IMG/VR virus record: IMGVR_UViG_3300044911_002386
Span: 103,812 to 167,811 of that record
Source of the DNA: a virus
Reading direction: 5' to 3' (one strand)
DNA length: 64,000 nt
The notes below the pieces were generated by a model. That model had not been told where the DNA came from. It did not search any database and saw only the letters and a list, made by a program, of their open reading frames with translations. Of this stretch, positions 11,279 through 41,143 are shown piece by piece (position 1 is the stretch's first letter; every line of letters begins with the position of its first letter). The translations under genes were made by a program, and so were the position numbers.

Positions 11279-12313
11279 TCAGAGAATCTTGGCTGCAATT
11301 AAGCAACCACGCGCGACGGCATGCAGGGGGTCATTGGCGTGCCGCACTTCTTTAATTGGTAATGGAAATCCGTTGTCGTCCAATTTTTTTGCGAACACGT
11401 CAATAAAGCCTTTGGCCTGGCTGGTCCCTCCGGCAATTACAACCGGCAACGGATCTTTAAATTTGGGTAACGCCTTGTGGCCAGCAATCGCGTGCGCCAG
11501 CATTTTGGTCGTGTAGTCAATCAACCGCTCGTAATACGCACTTACAGCAGCCAGCACCGGATTATCGTTCTGTTCGCCAATCGTGAAGTCACCCTGCTCT
11601 TTCTCGGCCTGTACCACCGAGTCTTTTTCACCAGTAGCGACGGCGGCCATACGGTCAATCCAGTCGCCGGATTTGGTGGTGCTAAACATGACTGTCGGCT
11701 CACCATTGAGCATGATGCAGCAGTTCACCATGCCAGCGCCGCATGACAGTGCCACGCCGGTGTAGTCATCTTTCTCGAGTTCGGAATAGCACAGCGCCTC
11801 GGCTTCGTTGATCGCCCGGGCCATGTACCCGCATTCGGCCAAAATGGTCATAACCACGTCTTCGTGATACCCAACGTCAAAGTCTTCGTCTTCTTGGTCG
11901 ACGGGCTGGGCCGGAACGCAAAACACAAGTTTTTCGTGGGGTTCGCTGGCCGTGCCGACGACTTCTTTCAGGATGTACGCCAGGATGCGCCGAGCGTCTT
12001 TTTCCTTGGCCGAAACAACGCCCCGGAACATGGGCCGTTTGGCTGACTCGTTGCGCTCGATGGCTTTTTCAATAGCGTCTTGCCCAAGAAGAATAAACGT
12101 GCCGTCAGCGTCTTTGACGAATAACTTGCCCTGCAGGCCTTTCTCAATCATCTTCGTGGCCACGGGGGTCGTCGGCTTGATGGCAAAGAACGCGTCACGC
12201 AGTTCCTTGTACTTCACGTAGTCGAACTTATCGTCGCTGGTGTAGCTAACGGGGGCTTCGGAGTCTGAAGCCAGGACAATGAATGAAGTACCAACGTCTA
12301 AACCTTTGGCCAT
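11279..12313 (-). CDS. actin-like ATPase (MreB/MamK/ParM superfamily)
   Basis: GLDVGTS (phosphate 1), NEAEAL (connect 1), SCGAG (phosphate 2), IAGGTS (adenosine), AVARG (connect 2). Confidence 0.85.
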   Translation of the reverse strand: MAKGLDVGTSFIVLASDSEAPVSYTSDDKFDYVKYKELRDAFFAIKPTTPVATKMIEKGLQGKLFVKDADGTFILLGQDAIEKAIERNESAKRPMFRGVVSAKEKDARRILAYILKEVVGTASEPHEKLVFCVPAQPVDQEDEDFDVGYHEDVVMTILAECGYMARAINEAEALCYSELEKDDYTGVALSCGAGMVNCCIMLNGEPTVMFSTTKSGDWIDRMAAVATGEKDSVVQAEKEQGDFTIGEQNDNPVLAAVSAYYERLIDYTTKMLAHAIAGHKALPKFKDPLPVVIAGGTSQAKGFIDVFAKKLDDNGFPLPIKEVRHANDPLHAVARGCLIAAKIL

Positions 12314-34311: not shown

Positions 34312-34515
34312 TTACTTCGCCACCACGGTTTTTCTCAGATCGACAATTTGCTGCTGGAGGTGACCGATCTCCAGAAACAACTTGTCAATTAACTGCCGGT
34401 CACGTTCACTCCGATCAATCAACTGAAGGATAGCCCTAGTAGCCGTCATCGGTGTGTGCCGAGTGTGGCCCGTAATCACGTCCACACCGCACCACTCAAT
34501 CATATTGTTAGACAT
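34312..34515 (-). CDS. small hypothetical protein (cassette 1)
   Basis: AGGAG RBS; lies between promoter motif and terminator. Confidence 0.7.
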   Translation of the reverse strand: MSNNMIEWCGVDVITGHTRHTPMTATRAILQLIDRSERDRQLIDKLFLEIGHLQQQIVDLRKTVVAK

Positions 34516-34552
34516 GCATATGTCTCCTGTGATGGTTAAGGGGCCTCATAAC

Positions 34553-34579
34553 ATATGCCAGGTTTTTACCCGTTATTTA
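34553..34579 (-). promoter_or_regulatory. putative phage promoter TAAATAA-N13-GGCATAT
   Basis: One of four copies with an identical 13-nt spacer length, each upstream of a transcription unit. Confidence 0.75.
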
Positions 34580-34588
34580 ACTAATCGT

Positions 34589-34630
34589 TGATAGCTAAAA
34601 AAAGGGGTGAGCACACGTGACGCCCACCCC
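34589..34630 (-). terminator. intrinsic terminator followed by TAGCTATCA
   Basis: GGGGTG/CACCCC hairpin, T7 tract, AGCTATCA. Confidence 0.8.
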
Positions 34631-34662
34631 AATCGAAGTTTAACCGCTTCGACGGCTGCCGC

Positions 34663-35043
34663 TTACGCGGACGGGATCTGCTCCAGGGCAGCTTCCACCC
34701 GGCGAAGATGCCGAAGCATCTCTTCCTTGCGGATCTCTGCCCGCCGCTCGGCGGCTGCGAGTTCGTTGGCAAGGATTTCGTGGTTCCGGCTGAGATTGAC
34801 GATATCCCGTTTGAGCTCGTCCATCTCGGCTGCGACGGCGTCACTGCCGAAAAGAATGGCCGCGCATCGTGCGAGGCGATGCACCGCGACTTCCGCCAGA
34901 TTGACGAAGTCGTGGCTACGCCGCCTTACGAATCCGATCGTCTCCTCGCGGCCGAAGACGTACGTTGCGACCCATATGGTCGCGAGCACCCACCACGCCA
35001 GGCACGCCATCGGGATCAGCGTATCGACAATCGACTCGACCAT
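34663..35043 (-). CDS. TM + coiled-coil protein immediately downstream of the large RNA
   Basis: Start MVESIV with GGAGG RBS; GC-rich codons. Confidence 0.7.
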   Translation of the reverse strand: MVESIVDTLIPMACLAWWVLATIWVATYVFGREETIGFVRRRSHDFVNLAEVAVHRLARCAAILFGSDAVAAEMDELKRDIVNLSRNHEILANELAAAERRAEIRKEEMLRHLRRVEAALEQIPSA

Positions 35044-35057
35044 GGGATCGTCCTCCA

Positions 35058-35765
35058 CAAGGCACCGAGCTAATCTGTTGTTAACGCACAACAGAGTCCG
35101 CTTTTGGGATTCGAACCCATAGCCCCACAGGTTGCCCTGCTGGCTCGCGGAAAGTTCCTGTACGGCAGACTTACGTCCACCGCGTCGAGTTTCAAAACTT
35201 CGCTGGCGTGTAGGAATCCACGCTGCGCAAGTCCGTCCCTCGACTCCGATGTGAACAAGGTCTTACCCTTGCCGTGCGTTCCGCTAAAATTGATCGATTC
35301 AGCGTTCCGTGGGAACGACTTATGAACCGGCCACTTTAAACGGTGAATTCTGCGGAAGTACAGAATCCAGCACAATTTGCCAATGAGCACTCTTCGGTTC
35401 GACACCCCGTGGGAGTGACTTACGAACCTAGCTCACCAACAAACTCACGTTGCTCGTCACCGCATATAAGAAGCGGCAGCGGCTTCTGCCCGGCTTGTGA
35501 CCGGATACAGAACACCGCAGCGACGAACCGCCTACTAACTAACTTGCGTTAGCGTTCGGTACACAGGCGCTCTAGAACAGCACGCCCATGTCGGGAAAAA
35601 CGCTCTTGGCGTTTTCGCGGTGGTGATTCCTCACACACCCCATACACGAATTGTGCTTTAAGCCGCACAGCCTTGTATGACAGGCTAGGCCGTTGAGAGT
35701 TTCACTCAACCCCTCCCTTTTTAACGTGGCTAGGTCCCCCACGGATGACACCTAGGGTGCCCTCA
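35058..35765 (-). ncRNA. candidate ~700-nt large structured ncRNA
   Basis: Own promoter motif; no credible ORF; more than 12 hairpins including GCAA/GTAA loops; duplicated covarying 33-nt module; TTCGAAT T-arm; 5'/3' closing stem. Confidence 0.75.
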
Positions 35766-35769
35766 TTAG

Positions 35770-35796
35770 ATATGCCGTGATTTATGCTGTTATTTA
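35770..35796 (-). promoter_or_regulatory. putative phage promoter TAAATAA-N13-GGCATAT
   Basis: Near-identical to the copy at 36444. Confidence 0.8.
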
Positions 35797-35805
35797 GATA
35801 CCCGC

Positions 35806-35860
35806 TGATAGCTAAGAAAAACCGCAAGCGCGGGGCTTTCGCCCTGCAACTTTTGGTTTC
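35806..35860 (-). terminator. intrinsic terminator followed by TAGCTATCA
   Basis: GCAGGGC-GAAA-GCCCCGC hairpin in an extended stem, T-rich tract, TAGCTATCA. Confidence 0.75.
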
Positions 35861-35876
35861 TCCCGCAGCGGGCGGA

Positions 35877-36350
35877 TTAACGACCGAACTTGTCGATCGC
35901 CGCCGCCTTGGTGATCCGGTCCGCCATGATCACCGTGCCGACCTTGGTGAACATGGGCCAACCGCCCACAACCTCGTCGAGCACGTGGGCCTCGCGGAGC
36001 GCCTGCAGCAGCGGGAACGGAATCAAGATCAGATCCACGTCCCACGACTCCTGCAGGTCGGCGAGTGCCCGCATCACCACGTAGGTGAGCACGAACACCG
36101 GCTTCACCGCCATGACCGTACCGGCGACGTTGTGGAGAGGCCCAGCCCACGGCGTCTCCGCGTCTTTGCGGTCCATCGACAGCACCTTGCTCCGCTCCTC
36201 GTCGCAGGCCGGCAGAACCGACCCGTCGACGAAGTTGAAGGGGTGCGGCGAACTGAAGTTCGCCACCCTGAGCCCGTTGCTCAGGTTGATGACCGGGGCC
36301 TCGATCAGGGTGCCCAGAACGCCATCGGAAGAAAGGATGGTCGCGTTCAT
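35877..36350 (-). CDS. hypothetical protein (GC-rich cassette gene)
   Basis: AAGGAGG RBS; VANFSSPHPFNFVDGSVLPAC. Confidence 0.8.
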   Translation of the reverse strand: MNATILSSDGVLGTLIEAPVINLSNGLRVANFSSPHPFNFVDGSVLPACDEERSKVLSMDRKDAETPWAGPLHNVAGTVMAVKPVFVLTYVVMRALADLQESWDVDLILIPFPLLQALREAHVLDEVVGGWPMFTKVGTVIMADRITKAAAIDKFGR

Positions 36351-36443
36351 ACTCTGCCCTCCTTAAGGCAAAGGCCGGATTCTGCCGGCACAGGATGTCA
36401 CCGCGTGTCAGTACACACCAACAGCTAACGGCTCCATCATTAG

Positions 36444-36470
36444 ATATGCCGTAATTTATGCTGTTATTTA
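36444..36470 (-). promoter_or_regulatory. putative phage promoter TAAATAA-N13-GGCATAT
   Basis: Third copy of the motif. Confidence 0.8.
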
Positions 36471-36478
36471 GCACTGCC

Positions 36479-36511
36479 TGATAGCTAAAAAAGGGGCCCA
36501 AGGGCGGCCCC
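36479..36511 (-). terminator. intrinsic terminator followed by TAGCTATCA
   Basis: GGGGCC/GGCCCC hairpin, T6 tract, AGCTATCA. Confidence 0.8.
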
Positions 36512-37403: not shown

Positions 37404-37412
37404 ATAAACAAG

Positions 37413-37766
37413 TGGACCCGGCGGGAGTCGAACCCGCGTCCGGAGAAGTGCCCAGTTAAAACATCTACGTGTGTATGCCATTATCTTTCACCAACGGCCA
37501 ATGCTATCCGCACACTTAGCGGAGTCACGTGGACTACCACGATCTCGTCCGATTACTTTGCCGGACCGACGCAAGTGACTTATCACTATCAGCCTGATTG
37601 GGCGATGAGGTCCAGGCAACCCCACAAGCCACCTAACCGAGGTCAGGCAGCGAGGGCCGGAGCATAAGCGCCAGCTAGAAACTTAATCGAGTTTTAACGC
37701 GGCCTCTCGATCAACCGCGACACGCAGTCAGAACCTTCTTCCTCCCGTCGATACCAGTACGGGCCC
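37413..37766 (-). ncRNA. ssrA: tmRNA; predicted tag (A)GAYAPALAA* at 37643-37672
   Basis: 5' GGGCCCGTACTGGTATCGAC, 3' GCGGGTTCGACTCCCGCCGGGTCCA with G3-U70; PK1 CGCGG..ATCGAG..CCGCG-TTAAAA-CTCGAT; tag ends in LAA. Confidence 0.93.
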
Positions 37767-37841: not shown

Positions 37842-37913
37842 TGACCCCACGGGGACTCGAACCCCGGTTACAGCCGTGAAAGGGCCGTGTCCTAACCGCT
37901 AGACGATGGGGCC
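37842..37913 (-). tRNA. trnE: tRNA-Glu(TTC)
   Basis: GGCCCCA/TGGGGTC acceptor, CTTTCAC loop, TTCGAGT T-loop. Confidence 0.95.
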
Positions 37914-38025
37914 GTCGAAAGGGCGGGTGCCGCAGCCTTGGGCCAACTGCAGCACCCGCCCAGAACGACCTGTGAAAGTGTGCGCGACCGAGTTCCCCGA
38001 TCCTTACGCTTCACAGGTTTGCTAT

Positions 38026-38337
38026 TCAATGATAGCGTACACAAGCAAACCAGCCACGTCGACCTCGGGCAATCCCGATGTCACGAGCCGGCCGTGTTCC
38101 CCAGTAGCAGCAGTTCCGTTTGGCTGCTTCGGGAGAACTGGAGGAGTAGCCCACGCCTTCATACCCTCCGGTAGGATTGCCGTAATGGCGACACTGTCCG
38201 TCGGCCGCCATTCGCTCGGCAACGCCTTGGGCGGTGGTCGTCGTGTAAGCAGAACACTTACCGTTCGAACACACCGGGCTTTGTGCCTGCACGCTCACAC
38301 TGCACAGACAAAGAATCGTAAACAGAACGGAACGCAT
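38026..38337 (-). CDS. small secreted Cys-rich protein (minimal CAP/SCP-like, planctomycete type)
   Basis: Signal peptide; AQGVAE..H..YEGVG..NCCYWG..GWFACVRY; AAGGAGG RBS. Confidence 0.75.
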   Translation of the reverse strand: MRSVLFTILCLCSVSVQAQSPVCSNGKCSAYTTTTAQGVAERMAADGQCRHYGNPTGGYEGVGYSSSSPEAAKRNCCYWGTRPARDIGIARGRRGWFACVRYH

Positions 38338-38407
38338 ACAACCTCCTTGTTGCCCATCAGGGATGCGCCTGATGTCAGAAAAATGAAACCCCGCACCGGG
38401 CAGCAGA

Positions 38408-38695
38408 TTACCGGCGGTAGCCAGTAACCTTCTCTACCTCTGCCTTGTTTTCAATTAACAGCCAAGTCTTTGGCCGATCATCGTCAACACGGCTGAATTG
38501 TTGAAACTCCTCTTGTCTGTAGCAGTACGCTGCAGCCTCAAAGAGCCCATTATCAACGACACAGACGACGGCACAGTCTTGGCACGCGGTCAGAGCCTTT
38601 TCAGCTTCAGACTGCGTGACAACAATGCCACCGAGTCGTTCCAGGATTAAATTAGCCTTGTCCCTGGACGTGCCCGTTTCAATGTAATAACCCAT
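38408..38695 (-). CDS. hypothetical phage protein
   Basis: MGYYIE..VCVVDNGLFEAA..D.RPKTWL. Confidence 0.75.
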   Translation of the reverse strand: MGYYIETGTSRDKANLILERLGGIVVTQSEAEKALTACQDCAVVCVVDNGLFEAAAYCYRQEEFQQFSRVDDDRPKTWLLIENKAEVEKVTGYRR

Positions 38696-38704
38696 GGTCG
38701 CCCT

Positions 38705-39013
38705 TTATGTAGCGTAGTGTCGGGCCCAGTATTTCTTGCACTTCTGCACACAGGCGTCGATATTCTTGCGCCCTACCGGGTTAGCAGAGTGCACAAGAAT
38801 TTCCATCGGTGGGATTGTGCCGCGGTAGGCTCCCTCTTCAATGACACAAGCTACGTCATAACCAGTCTTGGCATCCGGATCGCCAAGATCGTGGTCAAGA
38901 GAAATGACCGTCACGCCACCCGTGCGGATTACATTAATCGCTGTAGCGGCATTTGTAATCCAGATGTCAAATTCGTCCGGCTTGGGTCGAACATCATCGA
39001 GCCACACTTTCAT
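38705..39013 (-). CDS. cyclic-phosphate-processing receiver-domain protein
   Basis: KVWLDDVR..ISLDHDLG..TGYDV..VHSANPVG. Confidence 0.8.
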   Translation of the reverse strand: MKVWLDDVRPKPDEFDIWITNAATAINVIRTGGVTVISLDHDLGDPDAKTGYDVACVIEEGAYRGTIPPMEILVHSANPVGRKNIDACVQKCKKYWARHYAT

Positions 39014-39188
39014 TCTTGTCTCGCTTTCGTGCCAGCGCCTGCTCGACCTCTTCCTTCGGGTAGAACCGCGTGAAGTCGCCCTTGATCGTTAGCACACCTC
39101 GACTCTGAATGCCCACTACCTTCCCGCCGCCGAACTCACTGCCCATCCGTATGACCGGCGTGACTGTATTGCTCGTTTCAGTCGTCAT
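38994..39188 (-). CDS. small hypothetical protein
   Basis: Start moved to MTTETS, overlapping the upstream stop. Confidence 0.55.
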   Translation of the reverse strand: MTTETSNTVTPVIRMGSEFGGGKVVGIQSRGVLTIKGDFTRFYPKEEVEQALARKRDKNESVAR

Positions 39189-39420
39189 CTGTGTTTTCTC
39201 GCTGTGCAAGGATCTGACGTGCATTTGTATAAATACTGTAGAGCACGTCCCTACTGATGGTTGGATCGTTTGCCTTAATTGTGATTTTAAAGACAGCATT
39301 ACCGTCTTTGATGTCCAGCACGCAAGGCAAGTTTTTTTCTTCCAACTGCTTTGCGATACGGACCAGATCTTTTTCTTCCAGGCTTTCGCCGATGCCGACG
39401 ACAATTTCAACGCTATCCAT
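39178..39420 (-). CDS. hypothetical protein
   Basis: GAGG RBS directly after the atypical tRNA. Confidence 0.65.
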   Translation of the reverse strand: MDSVEIVVGIGESLEEKDLVRIAKQLEEKNLPCVLDIKDGNAVFKITIKANDPTISRDVLYSIYTNARQILAQRENTDDD

Positions 39421-39433
39421 AAAGCCTCTCTAG

Positions 39434-39504
39434 TAGCCCGCCGAGGAGTCGAACCCCGCGTTGCGAGTTAATAAGACTCGCTTGCCAACCGGTTTCCGCG
39501 GGCC
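39434..39504 (-). tRNA. atypical tRNA, anticodon TAT (Ile), with U37 and degenerate D-arm
   Basis: GGCCCGC/GCGGGCT acceptor, GCGAGT-CTTATTA-ACTCGC arm, CGGGG-TTCGACT-CCTCG T-arm. Confidence 0.65.
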
Positions 39505-39508
39505 GTAA

Positions 39509-39582
39509 TAGCCGCAGAGGGACTCGAACCCCCAACCCCCTGCGTGTAAAGCAGGTGCTCTAACCAATTGAGCTATGCGGCC
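39509..39582 (-). tRNA. trnV: tRNA-Val(TAC)
   Basis: Canonical cloverleaf, TTTACAC loop. Confidence 0.95.
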
Positions 39583-39591
39583 GACTGCGTG

Positions 39592-39939
39592 TTATGCGTT
39601 GTAACCCGTACGCAGGTGACGAGTTGTATACCAGTTGTACCAGTCGATACAGCGCTGGACCCGTTTTCGGCACGAGCGTTGTATCCGGAGCCAGGGCGTG
39701 TTTAAACCGTTTTCTTTCAAGTACCTGTTGTACGACCACACAACGGCCTCGTCACTACCGCCGTCGGTTACGGCGATGTTACAAGTTTCGCAGCGGTGGC
39801 AGGGGACGTGCTTGACGGGAACCTGGTGTATTTGCCCGTCAATTCGCATACTCCATATGTCGTTAAACCAATACGCCCGCATTGTCTCACCGCATTGATA
39901 GCACGCCACAGGGCGATACTGTGCAGTATCATTCGGCAT
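39592..39939 (-). CDS. YgiT/MqsA-type zinc-finger protein lacking an HTH
   Basis: CYQCG..VPVKHVPCHRCETC; start MPNDT with GAGGAGG RBS. Confidence 0.65.
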   Translation of the reverse strand: MPNDTAQYRPVACYQCGETMRAYWFNDIWSMRIDGQIHQVPVKHVPCHRCETCNIAVTDGGSDEAVVWSYNRYLKENGLNTPWLRIQRSCRKRVQRCIDWYNWYTTRHLRTGYNA

Positions 39940-40216
39940 CGCTGTCCTCCTCATCAGGAAACATTTCGTTCCAGCATTTACCGCAAATACCGGAAATAAG
40001 GAACTCCCGTTGATCGGCTGACAACGTTGGGAAACAGTCCTGGGCAAAACCGCCTTCACGAAATTTAATAGCGGCCTCAGCGTCTAGCCGGATGGATTGC
40101 TCGGTGCCACAGTAAATACAAGGACCGGTTACGCGCAGTGTTTGTCGTTCACCAACGGCACCCCATGTTAGTGAGCAGCAACCGTCGCGAAATGCGTATT
40201 TTTTGATTAGCGACAC
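39929..40216 (-). CDS. zinc-binding phage protein
   Basis: CIYCG..QDCFPTLSADQREFLISGICGKCW. Confidence 0.7.
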   Translation of the reverse strand: MSLIKKYAFRDGCCSLTWGAVGERQTLRVTGPCIYCGTEQSIRLDAEAAIKFREGGFAQDCFPTLSADQREFLISGICGKCWNEMFPDEEDSDAE

Positions 40217-40220
40217 GCGG

Positions 40221-40403
40221 TCACTCCGTTACCTGAAAAATGTGTTTGCCGCATGTGATGCGTACCGGCGGCGCCACTCTAGCTGCCGGATCGTCAACGA
40301 CGTCGCCGTCAACGCGCACGCGGCCCTCGACAATGACCCGCCGGGCTTCGGACGTGTCGAGCACCGTGAGGTTCGATAGAATATCTACGAGAGGCATCAT
40401 CAT
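40221..40403 (-). CDS. stand-alone S4-like RNA-binding domain
   Basis: SEARRVIVEGRVRVDG..V.DP..I.CGK, resembling the TyrRS C-terminal S4 domain. Confidence 0.7.
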   Translation of the reverse strand: MMMPLVDILSNLTVLDTSEARRVIVEGRVRVDGDVVDDPAARVAPPVRITCGKHIFQVTE

Positions 40404-40434
40404 TAAGTACTCCGAAAAAAAGTAAAAAACCAAA

Positions 40435-40507
40435 TAGGAGCGGCGGGACTCGAACCCGCACTTGAAGGATTTTAAGTCCTTTGTCTCTGCCGTTGGACTA
40501 CGCTCCC
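40435..40507 (-). tRNA. trnL: tRNA-Leu(TAA) with a short variable arm
   Basis: AAGGA-CTTAAAA-TCCTT arm; 73 nt; variable region CAAGT. Confidence 0.9.
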
Positions 40508-40564
40508 AAAGAGCATTTGACGCAAGTTGTCATGGCGTAACATTTCACGTCAAATGCCTTGTTT

Positions 40565-40846
40565 TTACTCGCCGGCTAGCCAAGCCTTGTAGTTCTCCGG
40601 GCTGCCCCAGCATCCGCCCGGGGCGACGTTATAGAACCACTTCACGTAGGTTGGCAGCAGTTGCAGGTTATCAGCGTCTGCGCGTCCGCAAGCGTCGCGT
40701 AGGTCGTTGCTGATGACTGCCTGCAAGAAGTTACCGGGCGCCACGCGGTCTACAACGTACCGCGTGAGGGCTTCCTGCATGTGGAGCGGAATCTTGTCAT
40801 ACTCGCCCGTGAAGTATAGGTCGAAAAGAGGTGTTTTAGTTGGCAC
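40565..40846 (-). CDS. conserved hypothetical phage protein
   Basis: PGNFLQAVISNDL..AD..N..WFYN.AP..CWGS. Confidence 0.75.
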   Translation of the reverse strand: MPTKTPLFDLYFTGEYDKIPLHMQEALTRYVVDRVAPGNFLQAVISNDLRDACGRADADNLQLLPTYVKWFYNVAPGGCWGSPENYKAWLAGE

Positions 40847-41036
40847 TATTGTTCTCCTGCCAGACGTACCACTGCCCGTGCTCTAACTTCCACCATCGGC
40901 CCTCGTGGTACGTAATGTAGGGCTGTGGTTGGGCCTGTTGATGAATTTTAGCCGACATGCGCTGCACTCCATTTTGCAGCACAGGTTGGACGACAGGCAT
41001 AAATATTGAAACCAGAACCATAACTAACCAGTTCAT
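40836..41036 (-). CDS. small membrane protein
   Basis: MNWLVMVLV with GGAGGAG RBS; Trp/Tyr-rich C-terminus. Confidence 0.65.
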   Translation of the reverse strand: MNWLVMVLVSIFMPVVQPVLQNGVQRMSAKIHQQAQPQPYITYHEGRWWKLEHGQWYVWQENNSAN

Positions 41037-41069
41037 GTTCTCCTCCGTGAAAATGAACAATCGACATAG

Positions 41070-41143
41070 TGGACCCCCTGGGATTCGAACCCAGGACCAA
41101 CGGATTAAAAGTCCGATGCTCTAACCAACTGAGCTAGGGGTCC
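41070..41143 (-). tRNA. trnK: tRNA-Lys(TTT)
   Basis: Canonical cloverleaf, CTTTTAA loop. Confidence 0.95.

Follow-up and report, generated by a model that had tools for sequence, protein, structure and literature searches.

What is encoded by the 708 nucleotides at positions 35058–35765 on the minus strand of a 64,000-nt stretch of viral DNA, and does the product follow one fixed design? The stretch (hereafter the window, positions 103,812 to 167,811 of IMG/VR virus record IMGVR_UViG_3300044911_002386) makes up the final 64 kb of a 167.8-kb record, 82% complete, of a phage with a genome of about 200 kb; the record was detected across many lake-water metagenomes, and no cultured relative of the phage was present in the phage collection searched. 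The preliminary description, made from the letters alone, saw in this segment an ornate RNA with its own promoter, unlike any recognised family and possibly partnered with the protein encoded next to it. According to the data presented here the segment is very probably a genuine structured non-coding RNA, and it belongs to a real family of large phage RNAs, modular in build, that is uncatalogued and lies outside Rfam.

The RNA gene is non-coding, under purifying selection and structured. It was compared with its counterpart in a sister phage, L002, which was reached via homologues of the proteins flanking the RNA. The two RNAs are 95.2% identical over 671 nt, while identity elsewhere amounts to 91.6% for the transfer-messenger RNA (tmRNA), 79–91% for four flanking open reading frames (ORFs) and 70–83% at third codon positions. 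Conservation is near-uniform (95%) throughout the core defined below, and joint folding of the two sequences left 0 predicted pairs broken, with about 12 one-sided changes and 1 two-sided change. The coding explanation, by which a conserved ORF would replace the RNA, was rejected, since the sole long ORF (111 aa, 35070–35405) is frameshifted in L002. The motifs and hairpins listed in the preliminary description were found on the minus strand where it had placed them, most of them with pairing probabilities of 0.6–1.0, and its TGTGC/GCACA stem forms 4 pairs in the minimum free energy (MFE) fold. The MFE z-score of the 708 nt was −6.5 for the minus strand versus −2.95 for the plus strand and the lowest among 21 equal-length windows. 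The proposal of a large, structured, promoter-preceded RNA near the tmRNA/tRNA cluster is supported. Neighbouring cassettes reach z-scores of −7.4 and −6.5 in the same test and 200-nt windows within the RNA give only −1.9 to −2.6; therefore folding energy alone is not decisive.

The absence from known families, also anticipated in the preliminary description, held in every search made. Rfam, run on the window and also on homologous cassettes, gave no match to the RNA either at gathering scores or at E≤10; blastn against GenBank phages returned no match to the window RNA, and only chance or tRNA T-arm matches to its G051 homologue introduced below; blastn across 49 related phage records likewise gave no match. 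Exact-motif patterns specific to the window had no match in IMG/VR, the metagenome scan with them yielded one chance match in a coding region, and no description of this RNA was found in the literature.

Support for an ordered design comes from two distant phages, G050 and G051. The former was the top non-self match of the RNA from a promoter-pattern scan of IMG/VR and then led to the latter; their homologues are approximately 470 and 1000 nt long. The window and both distant homologues carry, in the same order, a 5′ pseudoknot (A), a hairpin B, a hairpin C and a block D, which in the window are located as follows.

35058–35765, minus strand: the whole unit, a non-coding structured leader of its cassette, with 708 nt in the window and ~1060 nt in L002
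35692–35743, minus strand: module A, an H-type pseudoknot, an A-rich linker and then a hairpin with the loop TGAAACT
35561–35591, minus strand: module B, a hairpin with an invariant upper part ending in TAGAGC
35374–35445, minus strand: module C, copy 1, placed at the tip of a long stem (internal repeat D2)
35295–35329, minus strand: module C, copy 2, with TAAG, a bulge, a 6-bp stem and a CAC/CAA triloop
35156–35253, minus strand: block D, with a conserved opener, two stems and a CAGGA tail

When collinear blocks were chained without bias across 1 Mb of DNA from the clade, the window and G050 proved to be reciprocal best matches with 4–5 blocks, two of which make up block D; the scores were 23.5 and 22.5, the next best being 17.5 and 13, and the G051–window score was at background level. 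A covariance model trained on G050 and G051 only, with rough E-values and training segments picked for similarity, ranked two modules of the window above everything else in the 64 kb, C with E 3e-6 and B with E 7e-6, the next match having E 0.03. Hairpins B and C occur together in all three lineages and nowhere else. The core is patchily distributed: 33 other related records, including 11 with a completeness of at least 90%, gave no match to the B–C model. Covariation, which the preliminary description had proposed as a check, was registered in both hairpins: 5 of the 11 pairs of B (across three lineages, with 97% of cells paired) and 3 of the 8 pairs of C are changed on both sides, and slid controls scored far lower than the real pairing. 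Module C is in addition duplicated inside the window RNA, its first copy covarying with the second.

The modules differ in how well they can be traced. The module C pattern had 6 matches in all of IMG/VR, each within a genuine cassette of the G050 or G051 kind; among GTDB genomes a relaxed version had one true match, on a phage contig binned into a metagenome-assembled genome, and 18 new matches that lacked any other module nearby and were treated as chance. Leave-one-out profiles ranked module C first in 3 of 3 lineages, recovered B well in 1 of 3 and failed to recover block D in any lineage, the G051 likeness of D being judged by eye only; the tail of this block admits many alternative 5–9-bp pairings, with no single partner assignable. 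Module A is met more widely: in G050, G051, the L002 insertion described below, L124 and, twice, L137, the last two relatives carrying it without B and C. Its pseudoknot can be enumerated in 5 of 7 copies, with a weak second stem in the window copy, and its hairpin shows an A-U to G-C change in L002. Of the 5′ pseudoknot as initially drawn, the CGTGG/CCACG stem is conserved and the CTAGGT/ACCTAG stem is without a counterpart in G050; in the homologues the loop pairs downstream of the A-rich linker instead. Taken as a whole, these comparisons show that the window RNA has an ordered A-B-C-D core in common with the two distant phages. Because the distant homologues share A–D, and the G050 RNA ends at the end of block D with a terminator directly after it (equivalent window position 35156), the conserved core is about 35743–35156 (~590 bases) rather than the whole 708-nt unit.

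The fixed size implied by the preliminary description could not be retained, since the length varies between about 470, 708, 1000 and 1060 nt across four relatives. The 3′ part of the RNA is exchangeable; the following elements are found there.

35097–35151, minus strand: module E, a tRNA-like three-way junction with a T-arm (35105–35119)
35094–35096, minus strand: site of a 352-nt structured insertion in L002, directly behind the T-arm junction
35074–35095, minus strand: module F, a 7-bp hairpin with the loop TGCGTTAA
35059–35066, minus strand: 3′ strand of the closing stem proposed in the preliminary description

Module E consists of a T-arm and a 5-bp closing stem only, having no D-arm, anticodon arm or CCA; it is not a tRNA cloverleaf, and ARAGORN does not call it. 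In its T-stem 2 of 5 pairs covary. A similar junction lies midway in the RNA of L118/L142, which otherwise does not resemble the window RNA, and another ends the G051 RNA before a U-tract. The L002 insertion brings a further copy each of modules A and F, and in a third close relative the gap has the same long size (1170 nt versus 833 here). The TGCGTTAA sequence occurs 106 times in 3.8 Mb, 7 times as such a hairpin, and four of these seven lie within these RNA cassettes on three different stems. Judging from this distribution, the 3′ modules are gained, lost and repeated, and the unit is a conserved core with swappable modules. The evidence thus points away from the single fixed ornate fold supposed initially. 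The closing stem, regarded there as the boundary of the domain, fared no better: its 3′ strand has a pairing probability of 0.97 here, and 2 of its 8 pairs are lost in L002 (C-A and A-A mismatches) and the stem is not seen in the distant homologues.

The genomic setting is given by the following features.

35770–35796, minus strand: clade-specific promoter motif (TAAATA, 14–16 nt, GGCATAT) upstream of the 708-nt RNA
35806–35815, minus strand: TAGCTATCA junction, which with its hairpin and T-tract precedes the promoter motif
35877–36350, minus strand: 157-aa ORF in the preceding, separate cassette, which has its own promoter at 36470
34663–35043, minus strand: 126-aa ORF with a hydrophobic N-terminus and a helical C-terminus
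37410–37766: tmRNA, 1.6 kb from the RNA
37842–41143: four tRNAs

The interval from the tmRNA to a thioredoxin gene is a row of cassettes, each composed of a hairpin with a T-tract, the TAGCTATCA junction, a promoter-like motif and cargo. The genome carries the motif 6 times, always on the same strand, and 20 shuffles contained 0 copies; the motif is also found in related phages, and a reversed-pattern control never matched. We infer that it is a phage promoter. The 157-aa ORF has 84 homologues, and other cassettes come after them in L006, L124 and L439. Non-coding cargo of a different kind follows the same promoter in the relatives L118, L124, L137 and L439. In L118 (5850–6915, equivalent to L142:11549–12614) it is a helix-rich cassette of 1066 nt, with no Rfam match, that has the T-arm junction in common with the window and another block of ~45 nt in common with G051. 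L137 (8590–9055, minus strand) carries 455 nt with two modules A, one module F and no convincing Rfam match, and L124 (780–1090) carries ~290 nt in the same slot after the 157-aa gene, containing module A and perhaps its own 5′ pseudoknot. The promoter-driven and apparently non-coding cassette of L439 (10530–11065, ~530 nt) follows a 157-aa homologue, and a CsrA gene lies 3.3 kb downstream of it.

Several further observations concern the same array. The whole cassette region 34350–36500, coding parts included, has z-scores of −6.5 to −7.4 against shuffles, unlike the rest of the window, and each cassette in it opens with a short structured leader. A degenerate tRNA-like element with acceptor and T-arm and no D-arm, below the Rfam gathering score, lies between two cassette ORFs of L127 (3120–3200, minus strand). 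An imperfect inverted repeat of ~100–120 nt stands right behind terminators in L369 (11112–11230), with similar ones in L137, L373, L002, L129, L370 and L127; it is perhaps a small mobile or recombination element. Away from the array, the window contains a volactin-family actin-like gene (11279–12313, minus strand; Pfam E 2e-61) with 226 IMG/VR relatives.

As to function, we tentatively suggest that the RNA serves as an abundant trans-acting multivalent scaffold or decoy with tRNA-like 3′ punctuation. The gene would be transcribed from the phage-type promoter inside an array of swappable cassettes beside the tmRNA and tRNAs, and its RNA would be made in bulk early in infection and act in trans. 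Small fixed-sequence motifs set on variable stems (two copies of C and, in the long form, also two each of A and F) may bind or titrate proteins, for instance host RNA-binding, nuclease or defence proteins; repetition of motifs within one RNA and their movement between RNAs are as expected for independent binding sites. The T-arm junction could be recognised by enzymes that process tRNAs, or its effect could simply be to halt 3′ decay; either way it would set the 3′ end of the RNA apart from the downstream message. The punctuation is supported by the place of this junction, which terminates the G051 RNA ahead of the U-tract and is immediately followed by the insertion in L002. A precedent in favour of the whole reading is phage K, which makes abundant long non-coding RNAs (lncRNAs) near tRNA genes, one of them from its own early promoter (PMC9241854).

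A number of points weigh against this interpretation. No target or partner candidates for decoy action were identified, module E is devoid of CCA and its role in processing is a prediction, and there are four distinct sequences in all. GGA is not enriched (13 versus 14.7 expected), so a CsrB/RsmZ-type sponge for CsrA was rejected. The conserved A-B-C-D order is also compatible with a single integrated fold, and a long-range pairing between the region just before B and the start of D is possible, with 4, 6 and 8 pairs in the three lineages. Finally, one metatranscriptome (X23) contained two 151-nt contigs inside the RNA (35390–35539 and 35593–35744; 97–98% identical, depth 2) and zero contigs on the ORFs flanking it, which is too weak to demonstrate expression; they were not counted as evidence, the strand being unresolved, DNA carry-over possible and one variant breaking a pair. 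CsrA homologues as such are encoded by both complete phage genomes tested (G051:113604–113759 and G006:156287–156445).

The integrated fold is the essence of the alternative that survives best, an RNA-only assembly of the GOLLD/ROOL type, in which the A–D core would be one fold oligomerising via kissing loops and A-minor contacts, and variable helices and the tRNA-like module would be tolerated decorations. It is possible, if unlikely. The conserved block order and the candidate long-range stem suit it, several loops are self- or cross-complementary over 4–6 nt, and the context is that of GOLLD and ROOL, i.e. phages, proximity to tRNAs, 500–1000 nt and few highly conserved bases (PMC5737381; bioRxiv 2024.12.08.627333); some GOLLDs even embed a tRNA (PMC12990946). 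GOLLD (RF02032) is, like the window RNA, a large helix-rich lake-phage RNA near tRNA genes with variable regions, but it is conserved in its 3′ region, whereas the window RNA is conserved over its 5′ 600 nt and has a variable 3′ end; the 416-position GOLLD model had no match in the source genome or five relatives. ROOL (RF03087) shares the size (~580 nt), the phage or prophage location near tRNAs and the few invariant bases (PMC5737381), but there was no match to the RNA in a targeted search run without a positive control. The loop–loop matches are short, chance would produce many of them and covariation was demonstrated for none; a fixed cage is also hard to reconcile with a module C present twice and with modules A, E and F recurring in unrelated RNAs. 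The phage K lncRNAs lnc001 and lnc002 (PMC9241854) resemble the window RNA as 0.6–1.2-kb intergenic RNAs beside tRNA genes, one with an early promoter of its own, with the difference that their expression was demonstrated, whereas the window RNA is known from sequence and has no match in the phage collection. The window RNA may thus work like GOLLD, ROOL or the phage K lncRNAs, but it is not a member of these families.

It is improbable that the locus encodes one precursor of loosely strung, independent small RNAs, lacking an integrated core and arising at an accretion hotspot, in part maybe as near-neutral cargo. The occurrence of modules in several RNAs, the change of cargo behind one promoter in four relatives and the failure of the B–C model to find further copies would all be understandable then, but not the retention of the A–D order in the window and G050, the exclusive co-occurrence of B and C in three lineages or the even conservation of the whole core.

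Less probable still is a ribozyme or self-processing RNA, whether pistol-like, HDV/theta-like or an intron whose removal yields the short form. We take module A to recall the pistol P1 stem and A-rich linker: a 5-bp first stem, a loop pseudoknot and such a linker are common to it and pistol (RF02679), but P2/P3 and a cleavage junction are missing from module A, whose loop finds its partner immediately behind the linker (pistol definition in PMC4604425), and the pistol model has no match in the source genome. A true pistol does exist in the clade, just upstream of the tRNA cluster (G051:5273–5343, or L370:274–344; 58 bits). The L002 insertion is precise and readable as ending in G, but its inspection revealed neither an internal guide sequence nor group II ends, the Rfam models of ribozymes, introns and RNase P matched nothing in L002 or L005, and the group I/II intron, RNase P, HEARO and tmRNA models had no match to the window RNA.

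A cis-regulatory leader, or an OLE-like RNA with the membrane protein encoded downstream as its partner, as the preliminary description had suggested, is the least credible of all, for although the 126-aa ORF is probably co-transcribed with the RNA (the first strong terminator downstream is 34604–34630, with none in between), follows it also in L002 and the third close relative, and begins behind a closing stem that ends few bases before the ribosome-binding site, the protein has 3 homologues only, all in the closest relatives, the G051 RNA is followed by an unrelated 290-aa ORF, the G050 homologue lies downstream of an ORF and stops at a terminator with no such ORF after it, the closing stem is not conserved, and OLE (RF01071), similar in its ~600 nt and a membrane-protein gene downstream, gave no match, the membrane-protein neighbour of the window RNA not being conserved.

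GOLLD and ROOL exemplify large phage RNAs for which structures are available but no function is known. With four distinct sequences, an uncultured host and almost no expression data the significance of the present family is limited. Nonetheless, it is unrelated to GOLLD and ROOL by model and offers a natural deletion series (470, 708, 1000 and 1060 nt) whose members share the core and differ by interchangeable ends; therefore core and accessory functions can be tested in vitro. It also illustrates how the accretion of modules can enlarge long phage RNAs. A bolder idea, doubtful at present, is that the clade combinatorially builds kilobase RNAs by placing modules from a shared kit (A, B, C, F and E) after a standard promoter and exchanges these modules in the manner of accessory genes, the A–D core being a new ornate RNA class and each add-on module neutralising a different host RNA-sensing or anti-phage protein. 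If this is true, such RNAs would be the RNA-level counterpart of anti-defence gene arrays.
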